Made by a program: the position numbers and the translations under genes. Of a stretch of 64,000 bases of DNA, positions 30,794 to 59,200 are shown one piece after another; within the stretch, counting starts at the first letter, position 1; every line of letters starts with the position of its first letter. Under the pieces are notes generated by a model that worked only from the letters and a program-made list of their open reading frames with translations, was not told where the DNA came from and did no database searches. The stretch spans positions 1 to 64,000 of the IMG/VR virus record IMGVR_UViG_3300033753_000334; one strand, 5' to 3'. Origin of the DNA: a virus.

Positions 30794-30867
30794 AAAGCGA
30801 AAATACCTGCGGGAAGGTCTTGCCTATTCTAAGGACAAGACTTTTTCTTTTTTGGACGGTGAGATGG

Positions 30868-33800
30868 ATGTCAGAAGAAAAACATTCACTGAAAACGGAG
30901 ATTGAACTTTTCTTCGGGGATGCTGTCAGCGAGACAGAACGGTTAGCGAATGCTATGGCTTTACTTAACACAGCAGTCACAGCTTCAGAAGGGAAATTGA
31001 ATCTGTCTCAATTAGTATCTGATTTTAATAAACTGAAAGAAGCACTCTCAGGTGAAGGTAGACTGGTAGCAGAACTTGATGCCGGAAACATTAAAAAGCG
31101 AGTTGAGTCATTTTTAAATAGTGCCATTAACAATATGCAGATCGAACTGAAACAGGAAACACGCGGGCGAAAAAGCAAACAAATTGATATTTCACAGGAA
31201 ACACAGAAGCTAACGGAACAAGCCCAAAAGCAAATGATGGGGGAAGTTAAAAAAGCCATTGAAGAAGGAATTGTACCTGGAAGCTTCAAAGTAAAGGGAG
31301 CGTCAGGTAGAGTCAATGTTGATCTATTGAAATTAAATGACATTGACGAAATGATAAAGTTGACCGCAAAAGCCGGCTATGAAGGTGCAGTTGACGTACT
31401 GAACAGCATCAAGAAAAAAATCACACAATCACCAGCGGAACAAGAAGGATTTAAGTTTGTCATTCCACCAAGTGCAGTAACGGCTATAAAAGGTACGATT
31501 CAAGAAAAAATTATTGCCGCAATGGAAAATGCACAGGTTCACTGTAATTTCAAACCGGTAGCCTCATTCAATTTGAAATCATTGGATTTGATTCAGAAAC
31601 GGATGAAAACAGCACTGGAAGAAGCGATTAATAAAAATCTCGAATTCGAGTTTATCCACGGTAAAACCAAAGAAAAAGTACCGTTCAAGTTCACACTAAC
31701 AACCGAGTTAATGCATCGTGTAATCGAGATGGCACAGCGCGAACTCGCCAAGGTATTGGTCAATCCTGAAAGTGTTCAACTTTCCAAAGATGCGAAACAG
31801 GCTGATTTCAAGGTAAACGTAATAGGGATGGAGGAAACACTCAACAAGATTAAAACGTGGGTAACCAATGTCAACAACCATTTTCTATCAGCAGATGCCG
31901 ACGTAAACAAGTTAATTGCATCTAACATCGATATGGAGAATTTTCAGCAAAAGATTACAAGCATCGGAGATAAAATCAAGCAAGTATCCGATGCGTTCAA
32001 AAAGATTCAGGTGTCAGACGAATCATCGAATCTGGCTGCGCTTGTAAAAGAAGCAGAAAGCTTACAAACGTCCGTTATCAATTTTTTAACCGTGTACAAA
32101 GCGATCCCGAAAACCATCAGAGAATCACTTGACCATAATTTATCTGTTGTGCTTAAAGAATACGAGTCATCACTTACACAATTGAAAGTGGATGCGGCCA
32201 AGGAAGAATTGATCAAAGGATTCGGTCAAGTAGAGAAGAAAATGAAAACGGCGATTGAACAGTCCTTTGTTCAACTGATTGAACAAACACCACATGTGAT
32301 TGATGCGAGTAAATTATTGACGATTTACAATGCCTGGTCGAAGTCTATGACTGAGCATTTAGATCGTTCAGCAAGAGAAGAATTATCTACGTTATCAACC
32401 TCCATTATTTCTAACAGCCAAGCGGTAATGCATCAGTTTACACAGTCGTTGCTTGGTTTGCTGCATGTTGTTGTTCCACCGTCAGCAGAGAAAAAAGACG
32501 AAGTAACCGTACCTTATATGCAAGTACAGGAGCGGATTCGTCAGCGTGTGCAGGATTTTGTCCAGCAGTTAGTCGGTGACTTTACTATTTCTCGTCCTCC
32601 GCAAGAAGGGGAAGGTATCGGAATTAATATCGAAATTCTGCAGGTCGCAATGAATCGTGTACAGACAATATTAAAAGACATGGTGGAGGAGCAATTGCGC
32701 GAGTTAACGGGGCGCATCGGTACGGAAAAGCCATCGCTGTCAAAAGAGGAAACGAAAGCGATTGACGAGATGTTATATGCAGAATCAAAGAAAATCCTCA
32801 ATCTTGTGGTTGACCAGGCGCGTTCCATTGCCAAGTCATTCACCGATGGCATCTCTAAGGATGGATTTGCGACGTTTACACAAGAAGAGCGGGCGAAAGT
32901 GCGTGAGCAGTTACTGCAAGGCATGGGACATATCGTAGCGGAGTTATCATCCAGTATGCAGGTGCTTTTACAGACCTTTTCCATTCCGCGTGATTTAGGT
33001 ATCGGCGGAAGTGAGAAAGTAAGAGGATTACTCAATAATATTTTTAAGGGGATCGATAACTCCGTTTTCTCTCACCTGAATAAGTTATTATCGGAAGTAG
33101 AAGTAGGTGGCCGGATATCGCTATCGACACTTCCGAGAATGAAGAAAGAACTTCGTGATTTCGAAAACAAAAAAATATCGAGGTCAGAGATAGAAGAATG
33201 GAAGAAACATGATCTTGATTATCAGTTCCTGAAAATGATTAAGCAATCACGGATTATGAAGCCATCAGAAGGTGATGCGTACTATAGTGACTTCTATGTG
33301 ACAAGAGATCATGTAACCGGAGCGCGTCAAGTGCCAGAACTTCCGAAGTGGATTCAGTCGTTGTTTGTTTCAAATAAAGATGAATTAGGGAAATCTATTT
33401 CTCACGCTGCTGCTAACCTGGACCCGAAATTCGGTATCAAGTCCGAAACAGAGTTCATGGATTATCTGAAACGGCTAGCAAGTAAGTATGATGGCATGAA
33501 GTCTATCGAAGAAAGGCTAAAAAATGAACTGTTAAATGATGTTGACCGTGCTGTAATCGAGCATATGAAGTCAACCATTCGCCAACTTGAGCAGTTGCAG
33601 AAAGTAGCGAAAGCGGCCTTGACTCCACGTTTGCGCAAAACGGGCAGTTACCGAATCAAAGACGAACACTTTGAACAATTCGCCAATGTTATTGGCAAAG
33701 TGAGCAGAGAAGGAGTTCCGCGTTTTTCGCAGAAGGAAATTGATCAGGCGGTAGCGCAGCGCAGGGAAAAGAATGCATCTGTCATCGGATTGCGCCAGAA

Positions 33801-36800
33801 ACTGAACGAGACAACGGATGCGGTTGTGAAGGAAGTTGAAAATAAGCTGCTCCATAATATTGATTCTGGATTCGTGCGATTGATCGAGGGGATACGTGGA
33901 ATTAACGTGCCGCCGATTGAGTTTACTATCGTAGGTCGTATTCAGTCATGGATGCAGCAGGTGCAAGATGAGACTGCACGTGTTCTGGAACGGATGGTGG
34001 ATAGTTCGTTACGCCCTGTACTCGAACAAAACATTCCGTTCCCGACGCATAACGCAGGTCATGGTCAGCCGTTTATTCATGCAGGTTCACCGTATCCACC
34101 TGGATTCAATCCGTTCGGATCCCCTGCTCAAACCGGTAATGAACAGCTTACTCCTTACATCCCGCAAGCAGCACCACGCACTGATTTTGACCGGATGCAT
34201 GCATTGGAACGTCAGGCGCTAATTAATGCTGAACGTATTCAGAATCGCTTTAACAATTTGATGCAGAAGGGAAACTTTACACCGGATAATTTCAGAGAAT
34301 TAGCGGACATATTGAATGCATATCAAGCAGAAGTAGGAGCAGCGGCCAGTCGTTATCGAAATGTGCTCACTCAATTGGGAACGGACGGCACAACAGGTAC
34401 AGAAGACGAAACGGTGGCTCGTTTATTGGCGGAAGCAAGAACAAGATTACGTGAGGAAACGAATCTTGCTAAGCAACGACTGGATCACTACATTGAGAGT
34501 ACATTCAAGCCAGCAAGTCAATCCGATGCGCTGACAAAACGGTTGTTACAACAGGAATTAAAAAATGCGGGTTATCTTGATGCAGCGGATTTGAACGTAC
34601 AAAAGATGCAGACACGCTTTTATGGAAAATTGGATGAGGCACAGATGCAGGCGTTAAACGGAGAATTATCACGCTACTACCAGTTAGCGCAACAAGTTAG
34701 TTCTATGCATCTGCTAAACGAGGAAGATATTGCAGCATCAAAACGAGAAATGCAGTATCTGAACCAGTTACTTGCATCAATCTCAGCACGTTACAGTCAG
34801 ATTGCCAAACAAACAGCAGAAGCTAATAAACAGCAGCGGGATCGGGATAAGCGCGGGGAGTTGATTGGACAACACGATTTACTGCGTAACATGTCGATCA
34901 GTTCAGCAAAGTTTAAAGATACACTCAAGCAAATGAATGAATTTAGTAACTTTGTTGAGATTACCAATGCACAGGTTCGAAAAGGCGCGGATGGCTGGAA
35001 TAGCTGGTCTGCTACTCTAAAAACTGCTGAAGGTAATACGGTTCGCATGTCCGGTGTGATTAATATGCTGACCGGTGAAATCTATCGTCAATCTGAATCA
35101 ATCCGGGAAGCGCAAAGTCGATTGGAACGGTATGCACAGATGTCAGCGATAGCGTCACCATTTGCCAATTCAATGCGTGGGGGTCGCGGATGGCAGAAGG
35201 ATTATTCTGTACAAAATTACAACCCGGTAACAAGTGGGGGTGCAGAAATCGATCCGGGCGGAGATACAAAAACGTTCATGGGTTCCATTGTTAATACTAT
35301 GCGATACATGCTGTCCGGGATGCTCATGGGAACACCTACTATGATGTTCCACTCTGCATTCGAAGCAGCAAAAGAATTTGATTATCAGCTTGAGAAAGCG
35401 CGTCAAAACTTCGTTATCAAAGACCCGAAAATGTGGAATCAAGCGATAGAACAAGTGAGTATGAGGCATGGTGATGTGAAGGATAAGGAAGAATTAAACA
35501 AACTTGTGAAAGAAGAATCAAACCGCCTTATATACGAAATCAGGGATGGAGCAGTTGAGCGTCTGCAAAACATTGCGATCACGTATGCAGTTCCGACTGC
35601 CGAAATATCGAAGGCATGGCAGATTGCTTCGCGTATCACAAATTCAGATGATGAAGCAATCGCCTTTACGCGAGAAGTAGCCAAAGTTCGGACATTGGAA
35701 CAAGTAGACGTAGAAAAGGCAGCAATGGGATTCGAAGCGGTAAAATCACAGTGGGGTTTGAACGGCTATCAGTTGGAGAAGTTCAACAATATGATGATAA
35801 AAGCCGCGAACATTTCTACAGCTACAGTTGAGGACTTGCTGGATTTCCAAAAGCGTGCCGGTTCGATTATGCGTAATAATTTAGAGGGGGCAGGATTGAG
35901 CAAAAATGATGCGGCTGCATCTTCCATTGCATTTGCATCCTTGTTCAGTCAGGGTTCGGGCAGAAGTGGGGCAGAAGGTGGTACATTTGCGAAAGCTGTA
36001 ACAGAACGCCCATACCAAAGTGCGCAGGCTGAATATTTCAAGAAGAAGGCCGAACAGTTAAACATTGAGGAATTGAACCCATACAAGATAGATGAGTTTG
36101 GAAATGTACACAAGAGAGCCTTCACTGACTGGTTTGCTGCGCTATCGAAAGCAATGGTGATAGCGATGCCGACCGACCAGACAGAAATACTCAAGCAAGC
36201 GGCAGGTGTATACCATTCCGGTTCATCAGCGGCAATTCAGGCGATGATTACAGATATGCAGAAAAATGCTGCGGAGATTGCAAAAAGAGTCAATAACAAT
36301 CGCAGATCACTAGGGCTAGAAGAATTCGACCCGAAGGCTGATATGGACAAAATAATGAAAGAGTATATTAAGAAAATTAGCGAAGCAACACCGGAAGAGT
36401 CCGAAGTCATGCTCGCTGGAATGTCCACTACATGGAATTTTCAAATTGATCGTGTCAAAGCGATGTGGGAGTCCTCTACATTCAGAGTGCTTGATGCTTT
36501 GAAACCGGAGTTTCAGGATCTGACGACCACATTAGGGGTTTTACTTCGTTCGATGCGAGAAAATGCTACAACATGGGCACAGGCAATCACAGGAATCACC
36601 AATATCGGTATGATGTTAGCAGTTGGATATGGCATGAATACACTCTATAACAAATGGAAGGGATTCGGTCAGCAAACGAGAATGGATGAAATTGACAGAC
36701 AACGGGGCTTGTTGCAGGCAGAACGTGGAGCCATTAGTCTTCGCAAGGATTTGTTGGAAGATCGCCTTGCACAATTCCATAGTCAACATGGGAAAGAAAT

Positions 36801-39327
36801 TGAACGTTTTAACGCGGTAAAAGATGAAAAAGTGTATAAATCGCGTACTGAGTTGATGCAGGCGGAGTGGGATGTGCAGCAAGCACGAGACAACTATGAG
36901 CGTAGAAAAGGTACGCTCACACCATTCGAGGATGAACAGGAACGGGCGAAAATGTACAGCCTAGAGCGTACAGTGGCGGACAAACGAAAAGTAGCGGAGG
37001 AACAGGAAAGCAAGCATGGACTTGATTCCAAAGTATTGGATGAATATAGCCGCCTGCAAACGGAAATGGCGCAAGTGGCGGTGCAGGCTACACGATTAAA
37101 CCAACGCATGGATATGCTGGACAGAGGGGCGCAACAGTGGGGAGTGGATGTATCGCAATTACAAGTGAAGATGGACAGGTTAGACAAAGAGTTTCGGAAC
37201 GGCTCCATCAATATGGACATGTACAATCAAATGATGAAAGAAACAGCAAGAGCGGCAGGTGTGGCAGAGGATAATATCGAACGCTTGCAGAAGGAAATGG
37301 ATAAACTTGAACGCGAATTTAGAGAAGGTGGAATGAGCGCACGAGTCTTCAATAAACAAGTCGATCATCTACGAAACATGCACTTAGCCGGAGATGCGGC
37401 ACTTCCGGGCGGCGGGTACGGCGGGAGAGCAAATCAGGGCGGCGCAGATATGTTAAATATGGTTGCGCAAGCTTCCTTGTTCGGCGCACTCATGGGAGGG
37501 TTCAGTGACCGCTCCATATTCACACGCACAGGAGATTTATTCGCGCTAATGAAAGAAGCGGTACGAGAAGGCTCAGCGAGTGGATTTATTCGTAGTTTTG
37601 GAAGTTTCTTCGGTCGTGGACTTGAACGAGATGAAAACGGGAAAATCGTGCGTGATGAAAATGGGCGCGTCCGTAAAAGACAACTTGCCCCAGAGCCAGA
37701 AGGTGAGCAGGGAAAAGGTAGGGGGGCGATGAGTAGGCTTGCAACGAGTTCACCACGATTAGCAGGGGCTTTAGGTGGCGGATTGTCGATGCTTCTTAGG
37801 TTATTAGCGGGCGGAGTCGGTTTAGGGCTGTTGACTGGTGGATTCGCTGCATTTACCTATGGTATGGCAAACGATAATGAGAAGACGCAGATTGATATTC
37901 AGCAATTCAAGGATATCGAGAAGAATGTCATGGCGATGAAAGAATCTTCCTCTTGGTTTATCAGAAGCGTAGTCGGTGTAAAGGAAATCATCGACACACT
38001 TACCGATGGAGTCAAGTCGATTCTAACAGATGGTTCTCTTGATGGATTCAGAAAGCATGGTAACGCATGGGTGATGGGTTGGAACGCACAAACACCGAAA
38101 GAGTTTGAGCAGCAGATGGAAGCGCAGGCAGGAGCTCGTATCCGTGAGCAAATGGTTGAGAGGTACGGAGAAGCTGAGGTAAAGAGACGGGAACAAGTGT
38201 TTAGCGAGATGTATTTTAAAGAAGCGAAGACGCTGGAAGATTACAAGAAGATTAGTCATTCATTCCTCGAAAAAGACAGGCAAAAAACAGAGGAAGAAGA
38301 GAAAAAGCTAAAAGAATTCTCAGATAGAGCAAATGGTGTAATAACATATGAGACGATGCAGAGTATCCAAGAATTTCTTGAACCGATTAAGCGAAAGTTA
38401 GAAGTTGCCCGCTCGAATTCAGAAACAGGATACGAAGTTGCCAAGACAAAAGCATTGTTATCAGGGATGCGTGAAGATTCAGAGCAGGTACGGAAACTAA
38501 CCAATGATTTCTTGAAAGCACAAATCGGATTGCTTCGAGCGTATACAGCACAAATAGATGAGAAAATGAAGGAAATGATTAATCGGGCAAAAGAAGAAGA
38601 GAAAAAAGGAAAGGTAGGGGAAGTTGAAAAAGTAATGAACAGCCCGGAGTTTATCGCACTCCAACTGGATAAGAACACCCACAACGCTCAAATAGTACAA
38701 ATGCAACTCCAAATGCATCAAACAGATTTATCGGCGATCAGCAGTATCACAACCAAACTGGAACGTGCAAAACGCATGGCACAAGCAGAAGGAAATATCC
38801 GTCGTTCGAACTTGCTACTCGGTGGCGCAAAAGAAGATTCAATGGCTGTCAAAATGGCAGATCGGCAGACGATGTTGAATATCAACAATCAAATTGGTCA
38901 GGCGATTGTGGAACTACAAAAGCAACTGAACAGTGGCAAGTTTCAAGGTGAAGATCGTAATGATATTTTGCTTCAAATCAAGGAGCTGCAAGCAGAAAGC
39001 CGGGATAACCTTGTTAAAATCCGCGAAAAGATGACAAACAGTCTGTCCACGTACAACTTGCCATCCGGGATTCAAGGAATGACCTTCCAGGAAGCGATGC
39101 AGCGTAAAAATGACTACCGCTCGTATGCGATTACGCAGGGTGGTTTGACAATCAACGTCAACGTACCGGTACAGGGGAATTTTGGCGATGAGAAGGTAGC
39201 GAAGCAGCGCGGGCAGGCAACGGCACGGCAGGTGGCACAAGAAGTATCGAATATCCTGAGTCGTCAGGTGAAATCGTTTGGAGCGGGAGTGGGGTATTTC
39301 AGCCCGTTCGCCGTTGGAAGAACATAG
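30868..39327 (+). CDS. Tail tape measure protein (~2,820 aa)
   Basis: Very long helical ORF after the chaperones, with a TP901-like core (AANISTATVEDL, GRSGAEGGT). Confidence 0.9.
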   Translation: MSEEKHSLKTEIELFFGDAVSETERLANAMALLNTAVTASEGKLNLSQLVSDFNKLKEALSGEGRLVAELDAGNIKKRVESFLNSAINNMQIELKQETRGRKSKQIDISQETQKLTEQAQKQMMGEVKKAIEEGIVPGSFKVKGASGRVNVDLLKLNDIDEMIKLTAKAGYEGAVDVLNSIKKKITQSPAEQEGFKFVIPPSAVTAIKGTIQEKIIAAMENAQVHCNFKPVASFNLKSLDLIQKRMKTALEEAINKNLEFEFIHGKTKEKVPFKFTLTTELMHRVIEMAQRELAKVLVNPESVQLSKDAKQADFKVNVIGMEETLNKIKTWVTNVNNHFLSADADVNKLIASNIDMENFQQKITSIGDKIKQVSDAFKKIQVSDESSNLAALVKEAESLQTSVINFLTVYKAIPKTIRESLDHNLSVVLKEYESSLTQLKVDAAKEELIKGFGQVEKKMKTAIEQSFVQLIEQTPHVIDASKLLTIYNAWSKSMTEHLDRSAREELSTLSTSIISNSQAVMHQFTQSLLGLLHVVVPPSAEKKDEVTVPYMQVQERIRQRVQDFVQQLVGDFTISRPPQEGEGIGINIEILQVAMNRVQTILKDMVEEQLRELTGRIGTEKPSLSKEETKAIDEMLYAESKKILNLVVDQARSIAKSFTDGISKDGFATFTQEERAKVREQLLQGMGHIVAELSSSMQVLLQTFSIPRDLGIGGSEKVRGLLNNIFKGIDNSVFSHLNKLLSEVEVGGRISLSTLPRMKKELRDFENKKISRSEIEEWKKHDLDYQFLKMIKQSRIMKPSEGDAYYSDFYVTRDHVTGARQVPELPKWIQSLFVSNKDELGKSISHAAANLDPKFGIKSETEFMDYLKRLASKYDGMKSIEERLKNELLNDVDRAVIEHMKSTIRQLEQLQKVAKAALTPRLRKTGSYRIKDEHFEQFANVIGKVSREGVPRFSQKEIDQAVAQRREKNASVIGLRQKLNETTDAVVKEVENKLLHNIDSGFVRLIEGIRGINVPPIEFTIVGRIQSWMQQVQDETARVLERMVDSSLRPVLEQNIPFPTHNAGHGQPFIHAGSPYPPGFNPFGSPAQTGNEQLTPYIPQAAPRTDFDRMHALERQALINAERIQNRFNNLMQKGNFTPDNFRELADILNAYQAEVGAAASRYRNVLTQLGTDGTTGTEDETVARLLAEARTRLREETNLAKQRLDHYIESTFKPASQSDALTKRLLQQELKNAGYLDAADLNVQKMQTRFYGKLDEAQMQALNGELSRYYQLAQQVSSMHLLNEEDIAASKREMQYLNQLLASISARYSQIAKQTAEANKQQRDRDKRGELIGQHDLLRNMSISSAKFKDTLKQMNEFSNFVEITNAQVRKGADGWNSWSATLKTAEGNTVRMSGVINMLTGEIYRQSESIREAQSRLERYAQMSAIASPFANSMRGGRGWQKDYSVQNYNPVTSGGAEIDPGGDTKTFMGSIVNTMRYMLSGMLMGTPTMMFHSAFEAAKEFDYQLEKARQNFVIKDPKMWNQAIEQVSMRHGDVKDKEELNKLVKEESNRLIYEIRDGAVERLQNIAITYAVPTAEISKAWQIASRITNSDDEAIAFTREVAKVRTLEQVDVEKAAMGFEAVKSQWGLNGYQLEKFNNMMIKAANISTATVEDLLDFQKRAGSIMRNNLEGAGLSKNDAAASSIAFASLFSQGSGRSGAEGGTFAKAVTERPYQSAQAEYFKKKAEQLNIEELNPYKIDEFGNVHKRAFTDWFAALSKAMVIAMPTDQTEILKQAAGVYHSGSSAAIQAMITDMQKNAAEIAKRVNNNRRSLGLEEFDPKADMDKIMKEYIKKISEATPEESEVMLAGMSTTWNFQIDRVKAMWESSTFRVLDALKPEFQDLTTTLGVLLRSMRENATTWAQAITGITNIGMMLAVGYGMNTLYNKWKGFGQQTRMDEIDRQRGLLQAERGAISLRKDLLEDRLAQFHSQHGKEIERFNAVKDEKVYKSRTELMQAEWDVQQARDNYERRKGTLTPFEDEQERAKMYSLERTVADKRKVAEEQESKHGLDSKVLDEYSRLQTEMAQVAVQATRLNQRMDMLDRGAQQWGVDVSQLQVKMDRLDKEFRNGSINMDMYNQMMKETARAAGVAEDNIERLQKEMDKLEREFREGGMSARVFNKQVDHLRNMHLAGDAALPGGGYGGRANQGGADMLNMVAQASLFGALMGGFSDRSIFTRTGDLFALMKEAVREGSASGFIRSFGSFFGRGLERDENGKIVRDENGRVRKRQLAPEPEGEQGKGRGAMSRLATSSPRLAGALGGGLSMLLRLLAGGVGLGLLTGGFAAFTYGMANDNEKTQIDIQQFKDIEKNVMAMKESSSWFIRSVVGVKEIIDTLTDGVKSILTDGSLDGFRKHGNAWVMGWNAQTPKEFEQQMEAQAGARIREQMVERYGEAEVKRREQVFSEMYFKEAKTLEDYKKISHSFLEKDRQKTEEEEKKLKEFSDRANGVITYETMQSIQEFLEPIKRKLEVARSNSETGYEVAKTKALLSGMREDSEQVRKLTNDFLKAQIGLLRAYTAQIDEKMKEMINRAKEEEKKGKVGEVEKVMNSPEFIALQLDKNTHNAQIVQMQLQMHQTDLSAISSITTKLERAKRMAQAEGNIRRSNLLLGGAKEDSMAVKMADRQTMLNINNQIGQAIVELQKQLNSGKFQGEDRNDILLQIKELQAESRDNLVKIREKMTNSLSTYNLPSGIQGMTFQEAMQRKNDYRSYAITQGGLTINVNVPVQGNFGDEKVAKQRGQATARQVAQEVSNILSRQVKSFGAGVGYFSPFAVGRT

Positions 39328-39615: not shown

Positions 39616-39744
39616 ATGATGGAAGTAAAAGAACAAAAAGTTCAAAACATGACTAAAGAAGAGCGCAAGCAGTATGCCCGTGACCGTATTAAAAAAATCT
39701 GTGACCGTAATGATTCTGCATTAAGGAGATTGTCTAAAAATTGA
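39616..39744 (+). CDS. Putative short antitoxin for Doc (42 aa)
   Basis: MMEVKEQ...RNDSALRRLSKN; its stop overlaps the doc TTG start; the C-terminal AL.RL helix is typical of Doc antitoxins. Confidence 0.6.
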   Translation: MMEVKEQKVQNMTKEERKQYARDRIKKICDRNDSALRRLSKN

Positions 39745-40157
39745 GTTTAGAAGAATTTGATATAGTTCCTTTAACTTTAGACGATATATACGTAATTCAT
39801 GAGGAAATGTTAGAACGTTACGGCGGGATTTCGGGGGCTAGAGAGCCAGGGTTAATAGAGTATATGACCGAAAAACCCTTTCAAGAAACTTTCGGCTATA
39901 TTCTTTACCCTGGCTTATTTTTAAAAGCAGCTTGTTATATGGAGGGATTTGCTACTCATCAATATTTTAATGATGGTAATAAAAGAACAGCATATGGTTG
40001 TGCAGCTTTATTTTTAGATTATAACGGATTTACCATTATTGTTGATGATGAAGAGCTTTTCAATATGACTATGGACGTTGCTCTTAGAAGAGTTGACGTT
40101 AACGAACTTTCAAAGTGGCTTGAATCAGTTTCAGTTCCCTCAGAATACATAGAATAG
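39741..40157 (+). CDS. doc: Death-on-curing (Doc/Fic) family toxin
   Basis: HQYFNDGNKRTA Fic/Doc motif. Confidence 0.88.
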   Translation: MSLEEFDIVPLTLDDIYVIHEEMLERYGGISGAREPGLIEYMTEKPFQETFGYILYPGLFLKAACYMEGFATHQYFNDGNKRTAYGCAALFLDYNGFTIIVDDEELFNMTMDVALRRVDVNELSKWLESVSVPSEYIE

Positions 40158-42220: not shown

Positions 42221-42658
42221 TTATGCTTCTGATTTCGCGGCGGCCTCTTCTCTTTCGTTTCCATTCACTGACTTGGACGACGTTACTGTCCTGTCTCGTT
42301 GGCGCACCTCACTTCCCTGGCCAAGCAACAAGCCTTCGATGATTCCCTCCACTTTGATTCGGTTCTCCCTGGTCAACCGCCGGAATTTGGCCAGAAACTC
42401 GATGTCTGCGGGAGAAAAATCCCCTCCGATTGCTTGCTCTGATATACGTGCGGATTTTTCACCCTCCCCTCTTAAAATCCAATCAGCCGAAACGTCAAAA
42501 AAATCGGATAACGCGATCAAAGCGTCGGCTCCAGGTTTAACCTTGTCCAACTCCCAGTCACCAACATTCCCGCGCGAAACGCCGATAGCCTCCGCCAAAT
42601 CCTTCTGACTAATTTTTTTGGTAGCCCGAAGCTCTTTGATCCTTTGGCCAATACTCAT
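42221..42658 (-). CDS. XRE-family transcriptional repressor
   Basis: IGQRIKELR..SQKDLAEAIGVSRGNVGDWE..P..LSDFFDVSADWIL.G. Confidence 0.92.
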   Translation of the reverse strand: MSIGQRIKELRATKKISQKDLAEAIGVSRGNVGDWELDKVKPGADALIALSDFFDVSADWILRGEGEKSARISEQAIGGDFSPADIEFLAKFRRLTRENRIKVEGIIEGLLLGQGSEVRQRDRTVTSSKSVNGNEREEAAAKSEA

Positions 42659-42699
42659 TAGATCACCCTCCGCATTAATATTCGAGCAATACAAGAAAA

Positions 42700-42757
42700 A
42701 TACACGTAAAATTACGCGTTTATTGTTGATTATACACTAATATACGTGTATTATATT
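42700..42757. promoter_or_regulatory. Divergent promoter with palindromic operators
   Basis: ACACGTAA-AA-TTACGCGT and ATACAC-N8-GTGTAT palindromes overlapping TTGATT-N17-TATTAT. Confidence 0.6.
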
Positions 42758-42818
42758 GGTAGATAGAAAACCACATCACAAACCGATTCTACCATACCGC
42801 AATAGGTGCAAACAGTCG

Positions 42819-42836
42819 AACCTTGACAACTGAATA
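42819..42836 (+). promoter_or_regulatory. BoxA-like antitermination motif AACCTTGACAACTGAATA
   Basis: Similar to the motif at 5845-63; in the leader of the cas12f operon. Confidence 0.5.
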
Positions 42837-42873
42837 GCAAGATTCAGTGGATATTTGTGAGGAGGGAAATCGT

Positions 42874-43371
42874 ATGAACCAAAAAACTGGTTTGCTAGAC
42901 GAGATGATGGCATTTTTGCTTCAACCTCATAGACTCACATACAAAGACGTATACACAGCACTTGATATACTCATTTTATGTCCGGAGTGGGAGCGAGAGC
43001 AAGCATGGGATATTTTGAAGGCGGTGACTCGTAGATACGAAATTGCCCCCGCTGATGATTGGCAGGAAGAAACAGGGGATTTTCTCGAAGATATGAAAAT
43101 TATTTTGGACAGACCGGAACGACCGGATGATATTGAACTGTACGATGCCATTATTTCGCTAATGTTGTGCCAGGAATCGGAACGCGAGGAAGCGTGGAAT
43201 ATCATGCGAGCTATCGTGTATCGGTATGAGAACGAGCCAATCGTTTCGACACAAGATGTAGTTGATGTAGAAGAGTTGTTTCAAGAAATATTTCGTCTGA
43301 TTAGCTTGGCAGAGCAGTTAAATCAAGAAGAAGTAGAATACTACGATGGCTATTCTGTGCTGGTGAGCTAA
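42874..43371 (+). CDS. Acidic protein with an internal duplication
   Basis: GGAGGG RBS; two copies of Y.A...L.LC.E.ERE.AW.I..A...RYE. Confidence 0.75.
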   Translation: MNQKTGLLDEMMAFLLQPHRLTYKDVYTALDILILCPEWEREQAWDILKAVTRRYEIAPADDWQEETGDFLEDMKIILDRPERPDDIELYDAIISLMLCQESEREEAWNIMRAIVYRYENEPIVSTQDVVDVEELFQEIFRLISLAEQLNQEEVEYYDGYSVLVS

Positions 43372-43389
43372 ACACAGGGCAGGAGTTGT

Positions 43390-43565
43390 TTGGGCTGATT
43401 CGGCAGCCTCAAGTCGAGAAGTGCGCTAGAAAGGATAGCGCAACACTCGATAAGGTACACGCTTATGCGTGGGAAACGTCATACATGAAAACCGTATGAC
43501 CACCATCGTCGGTCAGGAATGATGTGAAAGTATCAGGAGAGCGACGAATACAAAGAGCAGGAATA
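43390..43565 (+). ncRNA. Cas12f tracrRNA 1
   Basis: GTCGAGAAGTGC...CACTCGATAAGGTA core resembling the AsCas12f1 tracrRNA as recalled; anti-repeat TACAAAGAGCAGGAAT complementary to the array 1 repeat. Confidence 0.8.
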
Positions 43566-43648
43566 TCACAGTTTCTGCAAGATATGAGCAGAAAAGTGCA
43601 AGACATGCTGATGACCTGAAAATATAGAGGTTTCAAGGCTTCGCATGA

Positions 43649-43876
43649 GTTTCTGCTCGATGTAACTGGAGTGCGAAGTTGGCTCTTATCTTCCTGCCCG
43701 AGCAACAGTCCTTCGTTTCTGCTCGATGTAACTGGAGTGCGAAGATAATTTGATCGAGCTGTGCTTTTTCATCCAGCTTTGTTTCTGCTCGATGTAACTG
43801 GAGTGCGAAGGTAAGTAAGGTCGGCGATAATGGAAGGGAGAGCAGTGTTTCTGCTCAATGTAGCTGGGGTGCGAAG
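43649..43876 (+). CRISPR. CRISPR array 1: four 30-bp repeats (GTTTCTGCTCGATGTAACTGGAGTGCGAAG) and three 36-bp spacers
   Basis: Repeats start at 43649, 43715, 43781 and 43847; the last is degenerate (3 mismatches). Confidence 0.95.
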
Positions 43877-43908: not shown

Positions 43909-45177
43909 ATGAAACACACGAAAGTCATGCGCTATCAAATTATCAAACCAATCAACGACACGTGGGAAACGTTGGGACATGTTCTGCGAGAAATCCAGCG
44001 AGAGACACGCGCGGCGCTAAACAAGACTATTCAACTCGCTTGGGAATGGCAGGGATTCAGGGCAGAATATAAGCAACGTTATGAAGAATATCCAAAAACA
44101 AAAGATCATCTTGGATATTCAGCGCTGCATGGCTATGCCTACAATCGCCTGAAAGATGAGTTCTACCGAATGAACACAGCTAACCTATCCCAGACGGTTA
44201 AACGTGCGGCAGACAAGTGGAAATCCGACCTAAAAGACGTTATGCGCGGCGACAAGTCAATCGCCAGCTTTAAAAAAGATTGTCCGATTGATATCGTGTC
44301 CCAGGCGCTTAGAATTCGCAAAGATGGTAGTGACTATATTCTGACACTAAGCCTAGTGAGCATTAAATACAGAAAGGAACTGGAACGCAAGCAATCATCA
44401 TTTGATGTTCTGATAAGTGCAAATGATAAAACACAGCGTGATATTCTTGACAGGCTCATCGCTGGAGAATACAAGCTTGGAGCATCACAATTGCTCTATC
44501 ACAAGAAAAAATGGTTCGTTAATGTGAACTACCAGTTTGAGAAAGAAGAAACAGCATTCGACCAGGATAACATCATGGGTGTTGACCTGGGGATCGTCTA
44601 TCCGGTATACATGGCGTTCAATAACTCGTTACATCGGTATAAAATAGAAGGTGGGGAGATTGAACGGTTCCGAGCACAAGTAGAACGTCGGAAGAAACAA
44701 TTACTTCAGCAAGCCAAATACTGCGGCGAGGGGCGGCGTGGTCACGGAACGAAAACACGTATCCAGCCAATTGAAGTTGTCTCAGACAAAGTAGCCAATT
44801 TTCGAGATACAGTGAATCACCGATACTCACGCTATGTTGTGGATATGGCTATCAAGCATCGTTGCGGTACAATTCAGATGGAAGACTTGACTGGTATTGC
44901 AACAGACAATACTTTTTTGAAAAGTTGGCCGTACTATGATCTGCAACAGAAAATAGAATACAAGGCTCATGAAGCAGGTATACAAGTTGTCTATATCAAG
45001 CCTGATTATACAAGCCAACGTTGCTCGAAATGCGGTCATATTGAACGCGATAATCGAACAGAACAGGCGACATTTGAATGTAAGTCATGTGGCTTTAAGA
45101 CGAATGCTGATTTTAATGCAGCACGAAACATTGCCACAAAGGATATTGAGAAGATTATCGCAGAAACATTGAAATAA
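43909..45177 (+). CDS. cas12f1: Cas12f1 (type V-F) RNA-guided nuclease, 422 aa
   Basis: Collinear with the recalled AsCas12f1 sequence (QLAWEW.GF, NLSQT, GVDLG, GGEIE.FR, ANFRDT.NHRYSRY, QMEDL, YTSQRCS.CG, NAD.NAARNIA); D/E/D triad intact; flanked by tracrRNAs and arrays. Confidence 0.93.
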   Translation: MKHTKVMRYQIIKPINDTWETLGHVLREIQRETRAALNKTIQLAWEWQGFRAEYKQRYEEYPKTKDHLGYSALHGYAYNRLKDEFYRMNTANLSQTVKRAADKWKSDLKDVMRGDKSIASFKKDCPIDIVSQALRIRKDGSDYILTLSLVSIKYRKELERKQSSFDVLISANDKTQRDILDRLIAGEYKLGASQLLYHKKKWFVNVNYQFEKEETAFDQDNIMGVDLGIVYPVYMAFNNSLHRYKIEGGEIERFRAQVERRKKQLLQQAKYCGEGRRGHGTKTRIQPIEVVSDKVANFRDTVNHRYSRYVVDMAIKHRCGTIQMEDLTGIATDNTFLKSWPYYDLQQKIEYKAHEAGIQVVYIKPDYTSQRCSKCGHIERDNRTEQATFECKSCGFKTNADFNAARNIATKDIEKIIAETLK

Positions 45178-45194: not shown

Positions 45195-45371
45195 TTCGGG
45201 GCGATTCGGCGTCCTTGAGTCGAGAAGTGCTTTGGAAAGTACAAAGTGGCACTCGATAAGGTACACGCTTATGCGTGGGAAACGCTATGCATGAAAACCG
45301 CATAGCCACCATCGTCGACCGATAGTAGCGTCAAAACTACTGAGGATCGACGACATACAGAACGCAGGAAT
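45195..45371 (+). ncRNA. Cas12f tracrRNA 2 (diverged paralog)
   Basis: Shares an identical 35-bp block with tracrRNA 1, with compensatory stem changes; anti-repeat CATACAGAACGCAGGAA fits the array 2 repeat. Confidence 0.8.
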
Positions 45372-45453
45372 GACGGTAGGTTTTCGCATTCAAGCAGAGA
45401 TATCTTTCTGAATATAAGAAGCGAGAAAAGTAGTAATATCAAGCTACTTCGTG

Positions 45454-45552
45454 TTTTTCTGCGAAATGTATATGGAATGCGAAGGAGAACAAGGTAGAAC
45501 GATAAGTCTTGAGGAAGCCAAGTTTTCTGCGGAATGTATATGGAATGCGAAG
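45454..45552 (+). CRISPR. CRISPR mini-array 2: two ~31-bp repeats (TTTTCTGCG(A/G)AATGTATATGGAATGCGAAG) and one 37-bp spacer
   Basis: Repeats at 45454-84 and 45522-52. Confidence 0.85.
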
Positions 45553-45562
45553 AGGTGATCGC

Positions 45563-46171
45563 ATGTCACAGGTTAAAGTTTTTGACAATGCTAACGAACC
45601 ACACAAACGAAAACTTTTCTACGCCACAGGTATCGCAGGGGCGGAATGGAAAGAAGTCCCGGCACGTATCATCGAGCCATACTCTCCACCGACTCCATCC
45701 TTGCGTGTCAAAGAAAACAAAGTACTGAACGCTCCATCAGATTTAGTCGGCAGTACCACAGCAAGCTATCGAATGAAAGCGCGGCTACTATTCCAGACGC
45801 GGCAAGATTTGACTGCATACCTTGTTTATATCAATTATCCGCACAAGTTTTATGATGAGCGCGGCGTGATTTATATTGGCTCAGTCGATGACCACATTCC
45901 AAGTGTTCACGAAGGGTTGCAGCGTTACACAGTCGAAATTTCCATGCTTATGACAAGGAAAGACCAGTATGATAAGAAGTACGAGAATCCATTTTCTGAT
46001 ACGAATCCTGATGCATGGTATTACAAAGATTTACTGGAGCTTATTGACATGGGCGTTATCGCTGGAAAAACAGATACAACATTCCGGCCTAACGACTACA
46101 TTTCTCGTGCCGAGTTTGCCGCGCTGTTGAACAGGATACGCAGGCTTGCTGAGTTAACAATTCGGACATAG
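45563..46171 (+). CDS. Distal-tail-like protein with C-terminal SLH domain
   Basis: First structural-looking gene after the tape measure insert; FSD..WY..G.I.G..D.TFRPN..ISRAEFAALLNR. Confidence 0.7.
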   Translation: MSQVKVFDNANEPHKRKLFYATGIAGAEWKEVPARIIEPYSPPTPSLRVKENKVLNAPSDLVGSTTASYRMKARLLFQTRQDLTAYLVYINYPHKFYDERGVIYIGSVDDHIPSVHEGLQRYTVEISMLMTRKDQYDKKYENPFSDTNPDAWYYKDLLELIDMGVIAGKTDTTFRPNDYISRAEFAALLNRIRRLAELTIRT

Positions 46172-56221: not shown

Positions 56222-59200
56222 GTGCAAAAGAAAAAACAATATCTTTTCCAGGCTTCTCCTTTTTCTTTAATCCAGTTATCATACCTCATTCAATTTACCC
56301 CGCTAGTGGGTGGAGCAGAAAGCTACAAAGTCGAAGTGGATATAAACAATCGATATGAAGCGATAGAGAATAAAAAAATGTATACCACAGTGAAACGGAA
56401 AAGGTCAAAAATATCTGAAATGTTGGATTCAAGGATGAAAGTGCGGAAAAGAGCGAAGCGCATGATAGAGCATGAAATAAATCATGCCCAGTTCCCCGAA
56501 CTTATTCTGGATGGAGTTATTTCTGATGGCATTCCTATTAAAAGTGTGTCTACACGCGAAGGGATTGTAAGCAAGGATATTCATATTTCCTCTAAAGACC
56601 AAGAAGCATGCACGGCTATATTTGAAGACGGACCAGATACGAGAAGAAGAATAACGCACGGATGGGAACAAGTGAAAGAAGTAAGCGGAGAGAAAAAAGA
56701 ATTTCAAGAAGGAGATTTACACAAGAGCACTTCTTTCGTGCCTGTTGAGTATAAAAATGGGATTCAGCCTGTAAGTTTGATTCCTGCCAATGCTTACAAA
56801 AAATACGAAGAAGCTTTTTTGAAACAGGTGCAAGATAGTGCAATTCGTATGGAAAAGAACGGTTTAGAAAAACAATTGTTGGATGTACATAAATGGGATA
56901 GACGCAATGGAATTTTATTTGATATGCATGATTCAAAAACCCCTAGTGCTAATGTAGGAATGCTGCCATCTATATTTTGGATGCAGGAAAATAGAAAAAT
57001 AGATGGTCATCTCCCTCTTATCACCATCAGTAAGTGCAACATAGAGAAGGCAGAGATGCCAAACAAGCCGGATATGTTGATTCCTAGCCAAGATATGCAA
57101 GTAACTATGCGAGAAATAATAAGTATGATATCGCACGACAAAGAAGGTATGCAGCAGGAGACTAACTTTTTAACTAGACGTGATTTGGATACAGGGATGT
57201 TAAATAGAATAGTGGACAGTGCAGAAATGGCTGCTTTTGGTCAGAAGATGAAGGAAGAGCAGATCCAAAAAGAACGAATACTGCATGTTTTAATGAATAA
57301 CGCCAGTTTAGCTAGGGTAAGTGAGCAAGAAATATATCAATTACAAGAAGGGAATTCAGCTAATTTCTATGTTGAAAAAGATGGTGTGGTAAGTAGACCT
57401 GCCGATTTCACCTTAGGCTTAAATACAGGGTATCAAAGTAACAAAGTACACCAATTAGATCAAGATAAGGATATAGGAGAGACAATGTTATATGGTGAAG
57501 AAGAAAGCCGCGCAACTATATTGAATATGCTCTCATATGAGGATGTTTTTACAGGCAAGACGAATATCGAAGTAAATGCGAATGAGAAACAGGTGACGAG
57601 CTTGAATACAATGCCCGTAACTTTGATTGTTGTATCAGATGGCGCGGAAGGTCATTTGTTTTCAGAGAGCGATGGGGCGATAGAGCGTGAATATGAAGGA
57701 ATAAGAACAGATATATCAGGCAGTACGGTTGAAGGGGATAGCGGGGGAAAGGACGATACAAGGGATGCTTTTCTTGTTCACGCTCAGGTAGACGGAAAGT
57801 TGACCATTCCATTCGCTATTACAGCGAAAGAAAATGAAGTAAAAGCAAGCAAAGATGTAATGGATTCAGTCGTCAGTAATAATACTGAATTTGAAAAATT
57901 AATGCTGCATGCGAACGAATCACCTAAATTTTTGGCAGGTACTTTTTATACGGATATTGAAGCATCTATAGACAAAATGGGTAGCGGAGATGCGCGTTTT
58001 AAGCATGCCATAGAGCCATATTTTGAGGATAATGGACGGATAAAAAATGAAACATATGGGTGGCACGAGGATAAAGTAGGTTCAGGAATAGCGGTTGAGA
58101 AGCTATCTATAGAGACGAGAAGGGATGCGACTTCTGTAGAACCTATATTATTAGATTTAATAGTAGAAAGTAAACATAAGACGGTGGAACAAAACGTCAT
58201 CCTTGCTGATTCCAATACGACGGAACAGGTTTATAAGGATCATACGCTCATTGATTCCTTTGGTTCTCAACAAACACAAGGAAAAATAGTAACAATAATC
58301 GATTCTATGCAAAAGGGAACGGAAGAAGTAAGCGATAAGGGTGAAACATTGGAGTCTATTGTCGAAAGTCCTATTATTGCTTTAGAAGCTACAGTACTTG
58401 ATTCAAACGAAAATAAAAATAAAGTAACCTTTACGGATCACACGTCCATAGATTCTGCAACATCCTATCAATCCGAAGTTCATATAGGACAACAGATTGA
58501 AGCTATTGATACCAAGCAGCAGCAATTCACTCTACAAAAAGAAGTTGAAGGTAGTGTACATAGCCTAGAGGATGGAACCTCTGTTATTACATTTGCCATT
58601 CATCCAAGTGATCAAGAGGAAGCTAACGTACATCATGAAATGGTTGGGGAGCAAGAAGGCGCAGAGGAAGTAAGAAATAAGGCTATAGTAGATAACTCGA
58701 TGCTACATGTAGAAGTTATACAGCCAGATCATCGAATTCATGATATGGTACAGACACGAACGGATGCTATTGAAATTGTGGATGTAGTTAGTGATATGGC
58801 ACAAGACAACAGAGTTGATAAAGATTATACATTTGATGCATTGGATACTGAGTTGTTCACGGGGGATAAAAAAGTAATGATTGCCCTGAAAGATAAGAGC
58901 GAACAAAACGCCAAGGGAATAGAACAGGAAATAGAGTCAATAGGGAATAAGAATGTAGTAATATCGTACCGCATGTCATTACCAAGTGCCTTTCATGAAC
59001 CCGCATCAGCATCATTCGGTCTCCCTGCTGCAACGATGTTGTTTGAACAGAATCAAGGAAAGGCTCAATTTGATTTTCTTGGTGTATCTAACGTTTTGGA
59101 TTCAAGTCAAATCACTTCTTTGTTTGATAGTATGATGACGCAGATAAAGCAAGTAAGCATACAGTCACAACTATTTGATGTAATTATCAATAATGATGAA

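Follow-up and report, generated by a model that had tools for sequence, protein, structure and literature searches.

A Cas12f cassette in a provirus

The window analysed here is a stretch of 64,000 nucleotides (nt), the first 64 kb of the 98,984-bp IMG/VR record IMGVR_UViG_3300033753_000334, a provirus estimated to be 77% complete. It carries a small CRISPR system, in which a single cas12f gene is flanked by two sets of a short CRISPR array and a region resembling trans-activating CRISPR RNA (tracrRNA), and our subject is the origin of its spacers. The effector gene (43909..45177, + strand) encodes a protein of 422 amino acids (aa) that matches PDB entry 8J12 and carries the Pfam domain Cas12f1-like_TNB (PF07282). 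Compared with the AsCas12f structures 8J12, 7WJU and 8DZJ using phmmer, it gives an E value of 1e-153 at ~60% identity, with 8J12 aligned over residues 4-422, and the motifs of the RuvC domain and zinc finger (GVDLGI, IQMEDL, NADFNAARN and the CxxC pairs) align to those of 8J12. Judged from its sequence, the effector is an intact AsCas12f-like nuclease of type V-F1, with predicted activity.

Array 1 (43649..43876, +) ends 32 nt upstream of cas12f. It is built of 30-nt repeats starting at 43649, 43715, 43781 and 43847, the last of which has three changes, and of three 36-nt spacers (spacer 1, 43679..43714; spacer 2, 43745..43780; spacer 3, 43811..43846; all +). Array 2 (45455..45552, +) lies downstream of the gene, and is made up of two repeats, both variant, around a single spacer of 38 nt at 45485-45522. 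The repeats of the two arrays are only ~66% alike. Each array is preceded by a tracrRNA-like region, region 1 at 43389..43640 (+) and region 2 at 45195..45454 (+), and the two share a 123-nt core (43389-43511 and 45195-45317) with 81% identity. Region 2 contains a putative anti-repeat for the repeat of array 2, and a clean pairing of the two is predicted from the sequences; the pairing predicted for region 1 with the repeat of array 1 is less clear. The start of region 2 is also 94% identical to the stretch that directly follows cas12f in L074.

Upstream of region 1, and divergent from the Cas12f operon, is a gene of the XRE family of helix-turn-helix (HTH) regulators (42221..42658, - strand; 145 aa; Pfam HTH_3, 4.7e-14). 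The C-terminal helix of its product ends in EGLLLGQ. As set out below, spacer 1 appears to come from a relative of this gene, and spacer 2 comes from a relative of another gene of the provirus.

Spacer 2 and the variant cassettes

The locus was compared with the assembled contigs of four public runs (X3 to X6), of which X3 is from a mixed culture and X4 from a hot spring. Non-array contigs of both X3 and X4 contain a perfect protospacer for spacer 2 (36/36), with TTTA at its 5′ side in each case. The protospacer adjacent motif (PAM) of AsCas12f1 is NTTR (10.1101/2023.07.03.547593). TTTA fits this motif and fixes the orientation of the array, the repeat-proximal end of the spacers being the PAM-proximal one. 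The 96 nt that could be recovered around the target encode a segment of 31 aa that shares 17 of them with the resident tape-measure protein over residues 1825-1855 (36292..36384, +). That protein is the 2835-aa product of a gene at 30820-39327 that matches PF10145 above cut-off. The 31-aa segment scores 100 with BLOSUM, against at most 57 anywhere else in the genome. Spacer 2 comes from an ortholog of the resident tape-measure gene in kin DNA. The corresponding resident site (36321-36356) matches the spacer at 19/36 positions and has TTTC in the PAM position. X3 also holds array 1, so that the carrier and the target of spacer 2 occur in the same sample.

A second cassette of the same kind, in X4, differs from that of the window at 46 positions over 870 nt (~95% similarity) and consists of repeat 1, one other spacer of 35 nt, and the terminal repeat. 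Spacers are therefore turned over between near-identical cassettes. The X4 spacer can also be placed by homology, matching the window genome at 25/35 nt at 45568..45602 (-), where the first tail gene beyond array 2 encodes its N-terminus. It codes for QVRLFDTANEP where the resident gene has QVKVFDNANEP (8/11 identical), with an ungapped BLOSUM62 score of 46 that is above those of all 300 shuffles. This tail gene begins 10 nt past array 2, and the targets cluster around the island that contains the cassette. The contig depths for the spacer 2 target and the X4 variant are similar (960 and 980).

These cassettes bear on the question of whether the spacers record viral conflict, as cas12f and its array may have been captured together from a bacterial chromosome whose array had gained its spacers from phages of this family, in which case spacer 1 could be derived from an XRE gene and still record the defence history of a host. 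Such a history would be in keeping with the result of a search of the record for cas1 and cas2, neither of which was found, and with the existence of two Brevibacillales genomes encoding a Cas12f of 60% identity, one of which (G033) carries an array of ten repeats next to the gene, while the other (G036) has none. However, the G033 repeats are unlike the array repeats here, and the presence of wholly different spacers at the same position of two 95%-similar phage cassettes points to turnover after capture. In addition, mini-arrays of their own are found at most of the viral Cas12f loci compared: ten other IMG/VR contigs encode a Cas12f, at 36-64% identity, and a mini-array adjoins the gene in eight of them. 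We regard host immune memory as an improbable source of the spacers.

L081 is an unrelated phage Cas12f locus. Its lone spacer (L081:5473-5514) is identical in its PAM-distal 20 nt to an AntA/KilAC antirepressor gene 1 kb upstream (L081:2994-3035). The PAM-proximal 15 nt match that gene at 8/15 positions, yet encode similar residues (ASHTSILIFDLAL versus ASHTSILVGELAK). L081 has the same anatomy as is found for spacer 1 below: the spacer corresponds to a homolog of a regulatory gene encoded nearby, and the allele of the carrier is diverged in the seed. There is no XRE gene of the resident family near Cas12f in any of the ten loci, and the idea that the XRE gene travels with the cassette was dropped.

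Spacer 1 and the resident XRE gene

The reverse complement of spacer 1 encodes EGLLLGQEDKSQ. Aligned without gaps, the spacer matches the resident XRE gene at 42302..42337 (+) at 23/36 positions, and the matches are unevenly distributed. The PAM-distal 22 nt (43693-43714, against 42316-42337) are identical at 18/22 positions, and the reverse complements of both stretches read EGLLLGQ, the resident frame being that of the XRE open reading frame (ORF; residues 108-114 of 145). All four mismatches in this part are synonymous (GGA/GGC, CTG/TTG, CTC/CTT and GGG/GGC). The repeat-proximal 14 nt, on the other hand, match at only 5/14 positions. Directly upstream of the ungapped resident site, at 42298-42301, is GTTG, a PAM of the NTTR type; in the homologous, gapped register there is a 3-nt indel and CGA takes the place of the PAM, so that the resident XRE site has none. 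The earlier note on this DNA had pointed out the 18/22 match, the shared heptapeptide, the synonymous mismatches, the poor proximal match and the TTG beside the site, and each of these observations is borne out by the sequence. Its proposal that divergence of the seed protects the carrier from its own spacer also stands, whether the protection is sought in the nine mismatches of the first 14 nt or, in the homologous register, in the indel and the lack of a PAM.

The GTTG beside the ungapped site, together with the identity of the target as the adjacent regulator, could be taken to mean that the CRISPR RNA (crRNA) of spacer 1 pairs partially with the resident XRE gene and tunes its expression, in the manner of CreR or of the small CRISPR-associated RNA scaRNA. 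The known regulatory guides, however, pair in the PAM-proximal seed and are mismatched distally, while here pairing would be distal only, with a seed that matches at 5/14; such a seed mismatch should block the initiation of the R-loop by Cas12. Self-regulation is the least credible of the explanations considered. Scarcely more probable is that spacer 1 was taken from the resident gene itself, the seed and PAM of which later changed. The homolog is indeed only 1.3 kb from the array, and the divergence is concentrated at the PAM-proximal end, as such an escape would have it. Against this, the two sequences are separated by thirteen differences and the 3-nt indel, and the presence of four synonymous changes within 21 nt speaks for a long separation of two functional genes rather than for a recent escape. 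Moreover, the XRE gene is almost unchanged in X3, X4 and X6, which also excludes the variants in these runs as the target of spacer 1. At 42305, in the part of the gene aligned to the spacer 1 seed, the window has C where X3, X4 and X6 have A, a synonymous GTG to GTT difference (Val).

Further evidence comes from the small protein family of the resident gene. EGLLLGQ is a signature of this XRE subfamily, occurring in P0001, P0008 (Brevibacillus composti) and P0050, and P0002 has EGLLISQ. In these proteins the motif closes the conserved C-terminal helix, after which a variable linker begins. As the motif sits at this boundary, the similarity between the spacer and the resident gene stops where family members diverge from one another. 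The part of spacer 1 that does not match the resident gene encodes EDKSQ, which resembles the corresponding ELRSQ of P0005 and DNYSQ of P0002, with the terminal Q kept (p ~0.016 against random 5-mers, with the best-scoring of eight tails counted); this likeness is evidence that does not depend on the resident gene. The residue that comes next, beyond this tail, is Q in P0002, P0008 and P0050, and if its codon is CAA, this would place NTTG, a PAM of the AsCas12f type, on the spacer-sense strand. A representative search of 1.84 billion proteins added one further EGLLLGQ member (P0050) and none with EDKSQ. The pattern KVEGI[IV]EGLLLGQ has no match in IMG/VR, and a word-based protein search with the XRE C-terminus returned the query alone.

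One alternative is that the origin of spacer 1 lies in an unrelated sequence and that EGLLLGQ is a coincidence. At the nucleotide level this is not unreasonable, as another 23/36 match is found at 58868-58903 (-), several of 21/36 occur elsewhere in the window, local matches of equal score are also present there, and two other places reach or exceed the score of the match; in addition, the match was picked out afterwards from a very large scan. In shuffling tests an exact 7-aa match occurs somewhere in the six-frame window for 1.2% of shuffled spacers. When the match has to lie in a gene-like frame, on the other hand, the proportion falls to 0.097% (p ~0.001), and it is 0.003% (p ~3e-5) for matches no more than 3 kb from the array. 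Among the four spacers, spacer 1 alone gives such a match. Ungapped BLOSUM scoring over the full length misses it, but equally misses the verified ortholog of spacer 2, and so has little power here. The break in similarity at the conserved/variable boundary, the separate resemblance of the EDKSQ tail to the family, and the derivation of other spacers in this family of cassettes from homologs of resident genes all argue against chance, which we consider an unlikely explanation. It may be added that repeat 1, read in reverse, continues the frame of spacer 1 with LRTPVTSSRN, where the XRE tail has RDRTVTSSKS (43649-43714 against 42260-42337). The gapped nucleotide score of this extension into the repeat (RTPVTSS versus RTVTSS) is 20, compared with a background of 17-18, and it was treated as chance.

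Spacer 1 would thus very probably be derived from an unsampled XRE gene of the EGLLLGQ subfamily in a competing element, a source that we infer from these comparisons; the result is well supported, if short of proof. The earlier note had the spacer taken from an orthologous repressor of a related phage or module. An origin within the XRE family is backed by the statistics and fits the precedent of spacer 2, and the source element itself was not found.

Several points weigh against this derivation and have to be set beside it. The nucleotide match to the resident site is, as described, at chance level, and the shuffling tests were carried out after the match had been picked, so that they overstate the case somewhat. 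No protospacer of spacer 1 was found in any collection searched, neither in an XRE gene nor in an unrelated gene, including the search against phage databases that the earlier note had called for. The exact spacer has no match in IMG/VR contigs, as is also true of spacers 2, 3 and 4. A degenerate back-translation of EGLLLGQEDKSQ (12 residues), run against IMG/VR, 185,579 species genomes and the metagenome contigs of the Joint Genome Institute (JGI), hit only the array itself, on contig L002. The same pattern with three mismatches allowed is not matched in 65 Paenibacillus and Brevibacillales genomes (4, then 61). BLAST searches of the phages and plasmids in GenBank, with spacer 1 or the complete array as the query, gave chance 18-20-mers at most, and a scan of 66 loci with XRE homologs using every spacer stayed at background level. 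Spacer 1 was not seen on non-array contigs of X3 to X6 either, where assembled contigs can demonstrate presence and not absence. The meaning of absence is limited in general, since records very near the genome of the window may be missing from the collections searched. The record also lacks cas1 and cas2, which bears on how spacers could enter the arrays. Two further points, concerning the identity of the rival and the role of the targeted gene, arise from the context of the XRE family.

The closest XRE homologs with a readable context, L034 and L035 (52-55% identity), are located at the ends of Mu-like transposable prophages, in Paenibacillus and Brevibacillus. In both (L034:1002-4438 and L035:788-4423), the repressor gene adjoins a Ner-like HTH gene and a gene for a MuA-type transposase. 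The c-type repressors of these prophages resemble the resident XRE protein in their architecture of HTH and C-terminal helix; they differ in being encoded at a prophage end, divergent from the Ner-like HTH and MuA genes, whereas the resident gene is in a tail-module island and divergent from the Cas12f operon. With Mu-like repressors as the nearest homologs of readable context, spacer 1 could be directed at an element that is not kin. The competition directed at kin that the earlier note had proposed is therefore supported by the precedent of spacer 2 and left less certain for spacer 1.

The same note had placed the target at the regulatory switch of a rival. We do not find support for a master switch. 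The resident XRE gene is in a tail-module island and diverges from the Cas12f unit rather than lying beside a cro-like gene, and on these grounds its identification as a CI-like master repressor of lysogeny is not borne out. A separate divergent pair of XRE/HTH genes of the CI/Cro type is found outside the window, at 89532-89969 (-) and ~90108-90281 (+) of the record, and is the likelier lysogeny switch. In view of its position and of this pair, the XRE gene next to cas12f probably has a local role as regulator of the island. The divergent promoter region that it shares with the next ORF contains operator-like inverted repeats around ATACACGTA / TACGTGTAT (42690..42765), which are candidate operators by sequence.

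The island, a possible mechanism and related systems

The provirus encodes a virion set that includes terminase, portal, major head protein and other virion proteins. The nearest isolates by head protein are Bacillus phage EZ-2018a and Brevibacillus phage Jenst (32-35% identity), with genomes of 118-130 kb, and the window belongs to a large, Jenst-like provirus of siphovirus type from Bacillota. An accessory island of ~6 kb is located between the tape-measure gene and the distal tail genes, which continue downstream of 45563 and include genes with SLH and M23 domains. The island comprises, in order, a Fic/DOC-domain gene at its left end (39741-40157), two ORFs without a family hit, the XRE gene, an acidic ORF (42874..43371, +) that also has no family hit and that opens the + strand unit, tracrRNA-like region 1, array 1, cas12f, tracrRNA-like region 2 and array 2. 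In the Fic/DOC part, the sequence of the metagenome contig L002 departs in places from that of the window.

Taking the spacers together, we consider it likely that those of this phage Cas12f mini-array were copied from competing elements, out of variant forms of genes that the carrier itself possesses, spacer 1 coming from a diverged member of the XRE subfamily. The source of spacer 1 would be a diverged XRE gene in which ...EGLLLGQEDKSQ is encoded where the conserved C-terminal helix ends. This gene would most likely be carried by a related phage with a variant island, or alternatively by a Mu-like prophage with a repressor of the family. A crRNA with the repeat at its 5′ side and the spacer at its 3′ side would, together with the tracrRNA, guide Cas12f to cut rival DNA beside an NTTR PAM, and the allele of the carrier would be spared because its PAM-proximal 14 nt are mismatched. 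The cleavage activity and the ecological role of the system are what we infer from this arrangement.

The island may also act as a CRISPR-guided homing or marker-exclusion element. This suggestion arises because every spacer source that can be placed corresponds by homology to a gene in the island or next to it. On the left this is the tape-measure gene, ~3 kb away from the border; within the island it is the XRE gene; and on the right it is the tail gene, in its first 40 nt. In L081, the antirepressor gene is 1 kb upstream. A rival would then be cut at its alleles of the flanking genes, and recombinational repair from the carrier would copy the island and its array into the rival; at a minimum, the rival's alleles in the region of the island would be excluded. 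Homing endonucleases of phages bring about marker exclusion in a similar fashion. We hold this possibility to be doubtful.

The closest parallel is found in the archaeal portogloboviruses SPV1 and SPV2, the mini-arrays of which have one to three spacers that target closely related viruses within one population (Medvedeva et al. 2019, PMC6858448). In these viruses, the orthologous loci of the carrier are mutated or deleted, relatives hold other spacers at the same position, and the targets are near the arrays (PMC6858448). The locus described here has in common with them the short arrays (three spacers and one spacer), a spacer 2 that matches kin, mutated sites in the carrier, different spacers in relatives and targets near the arrays; reciprocal targeting is seen at most as the 25/35 match of the X4 spacer to this genome. 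SPV1 and SPV2 have no cas genes and borrow the type I machinery of their host, whereas the provirus has its own cas12f and tracrRNA-like regions and would appear, from its gene content, to be a variant that is self-sufficient for interference. The host is also different, being a bacterium (Bacillota), and the element is a large provirus of siphovirus type.

The effector is comparable to AsCas12f1 of Acidibacillus sulfuroxidans, also of type V-F1, in its length of 422 aa, the ~60% identity over the full length, the aligned motifs and the TTTA that fits NTTR. AsCas12f1 also depends on a tracrRNA, and tracrRNA-like regions accompany the effector here. The effector differs in being phage-borne, within an island among tail genes, in having two sets of tracrRNA-like regions and repeats flanking one gene, and in that its activity is predicted. 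Other phages carry type V systems, as in the case of CasPhi of huge phages. A further compact type V effector, Cas12r of the Thermus Lalka phages, is reported to be accompanied by short arrays with spacers against other mobile elements, mostly integrative ones, which was interpreted as conflict among mobile elements (bioRxiv 10.64898/2026.04.20.719267). On that description, the two systems are alike in being phage-borne, of type V and with short arrays, and differ in their Cas12 subtype and in that the identifiable spacers here hit homologs of the carrier's own genes next to the cassette.

The locus may be classified as a new member of a known group, that of virus-borne mini-arrays in interviral conflict, and as one that carries its own effector. 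It would be a bacterial counterpart to the mini-arrays of archaeal viruses, and it places an AsCas12f-like nuclease, of the family used in genome editing, in a natural phage setting. The clustering of targets near the cassette, which was remarked on but left unexplained for SPV1 and SPV2, raises here the hypothesis of gene conversion. With one verified kin-derived spacer and its PAM, and with carrier and target co-occurring in public samples, interviral CRISPR conflict becomes testable in phages of Bacillota.

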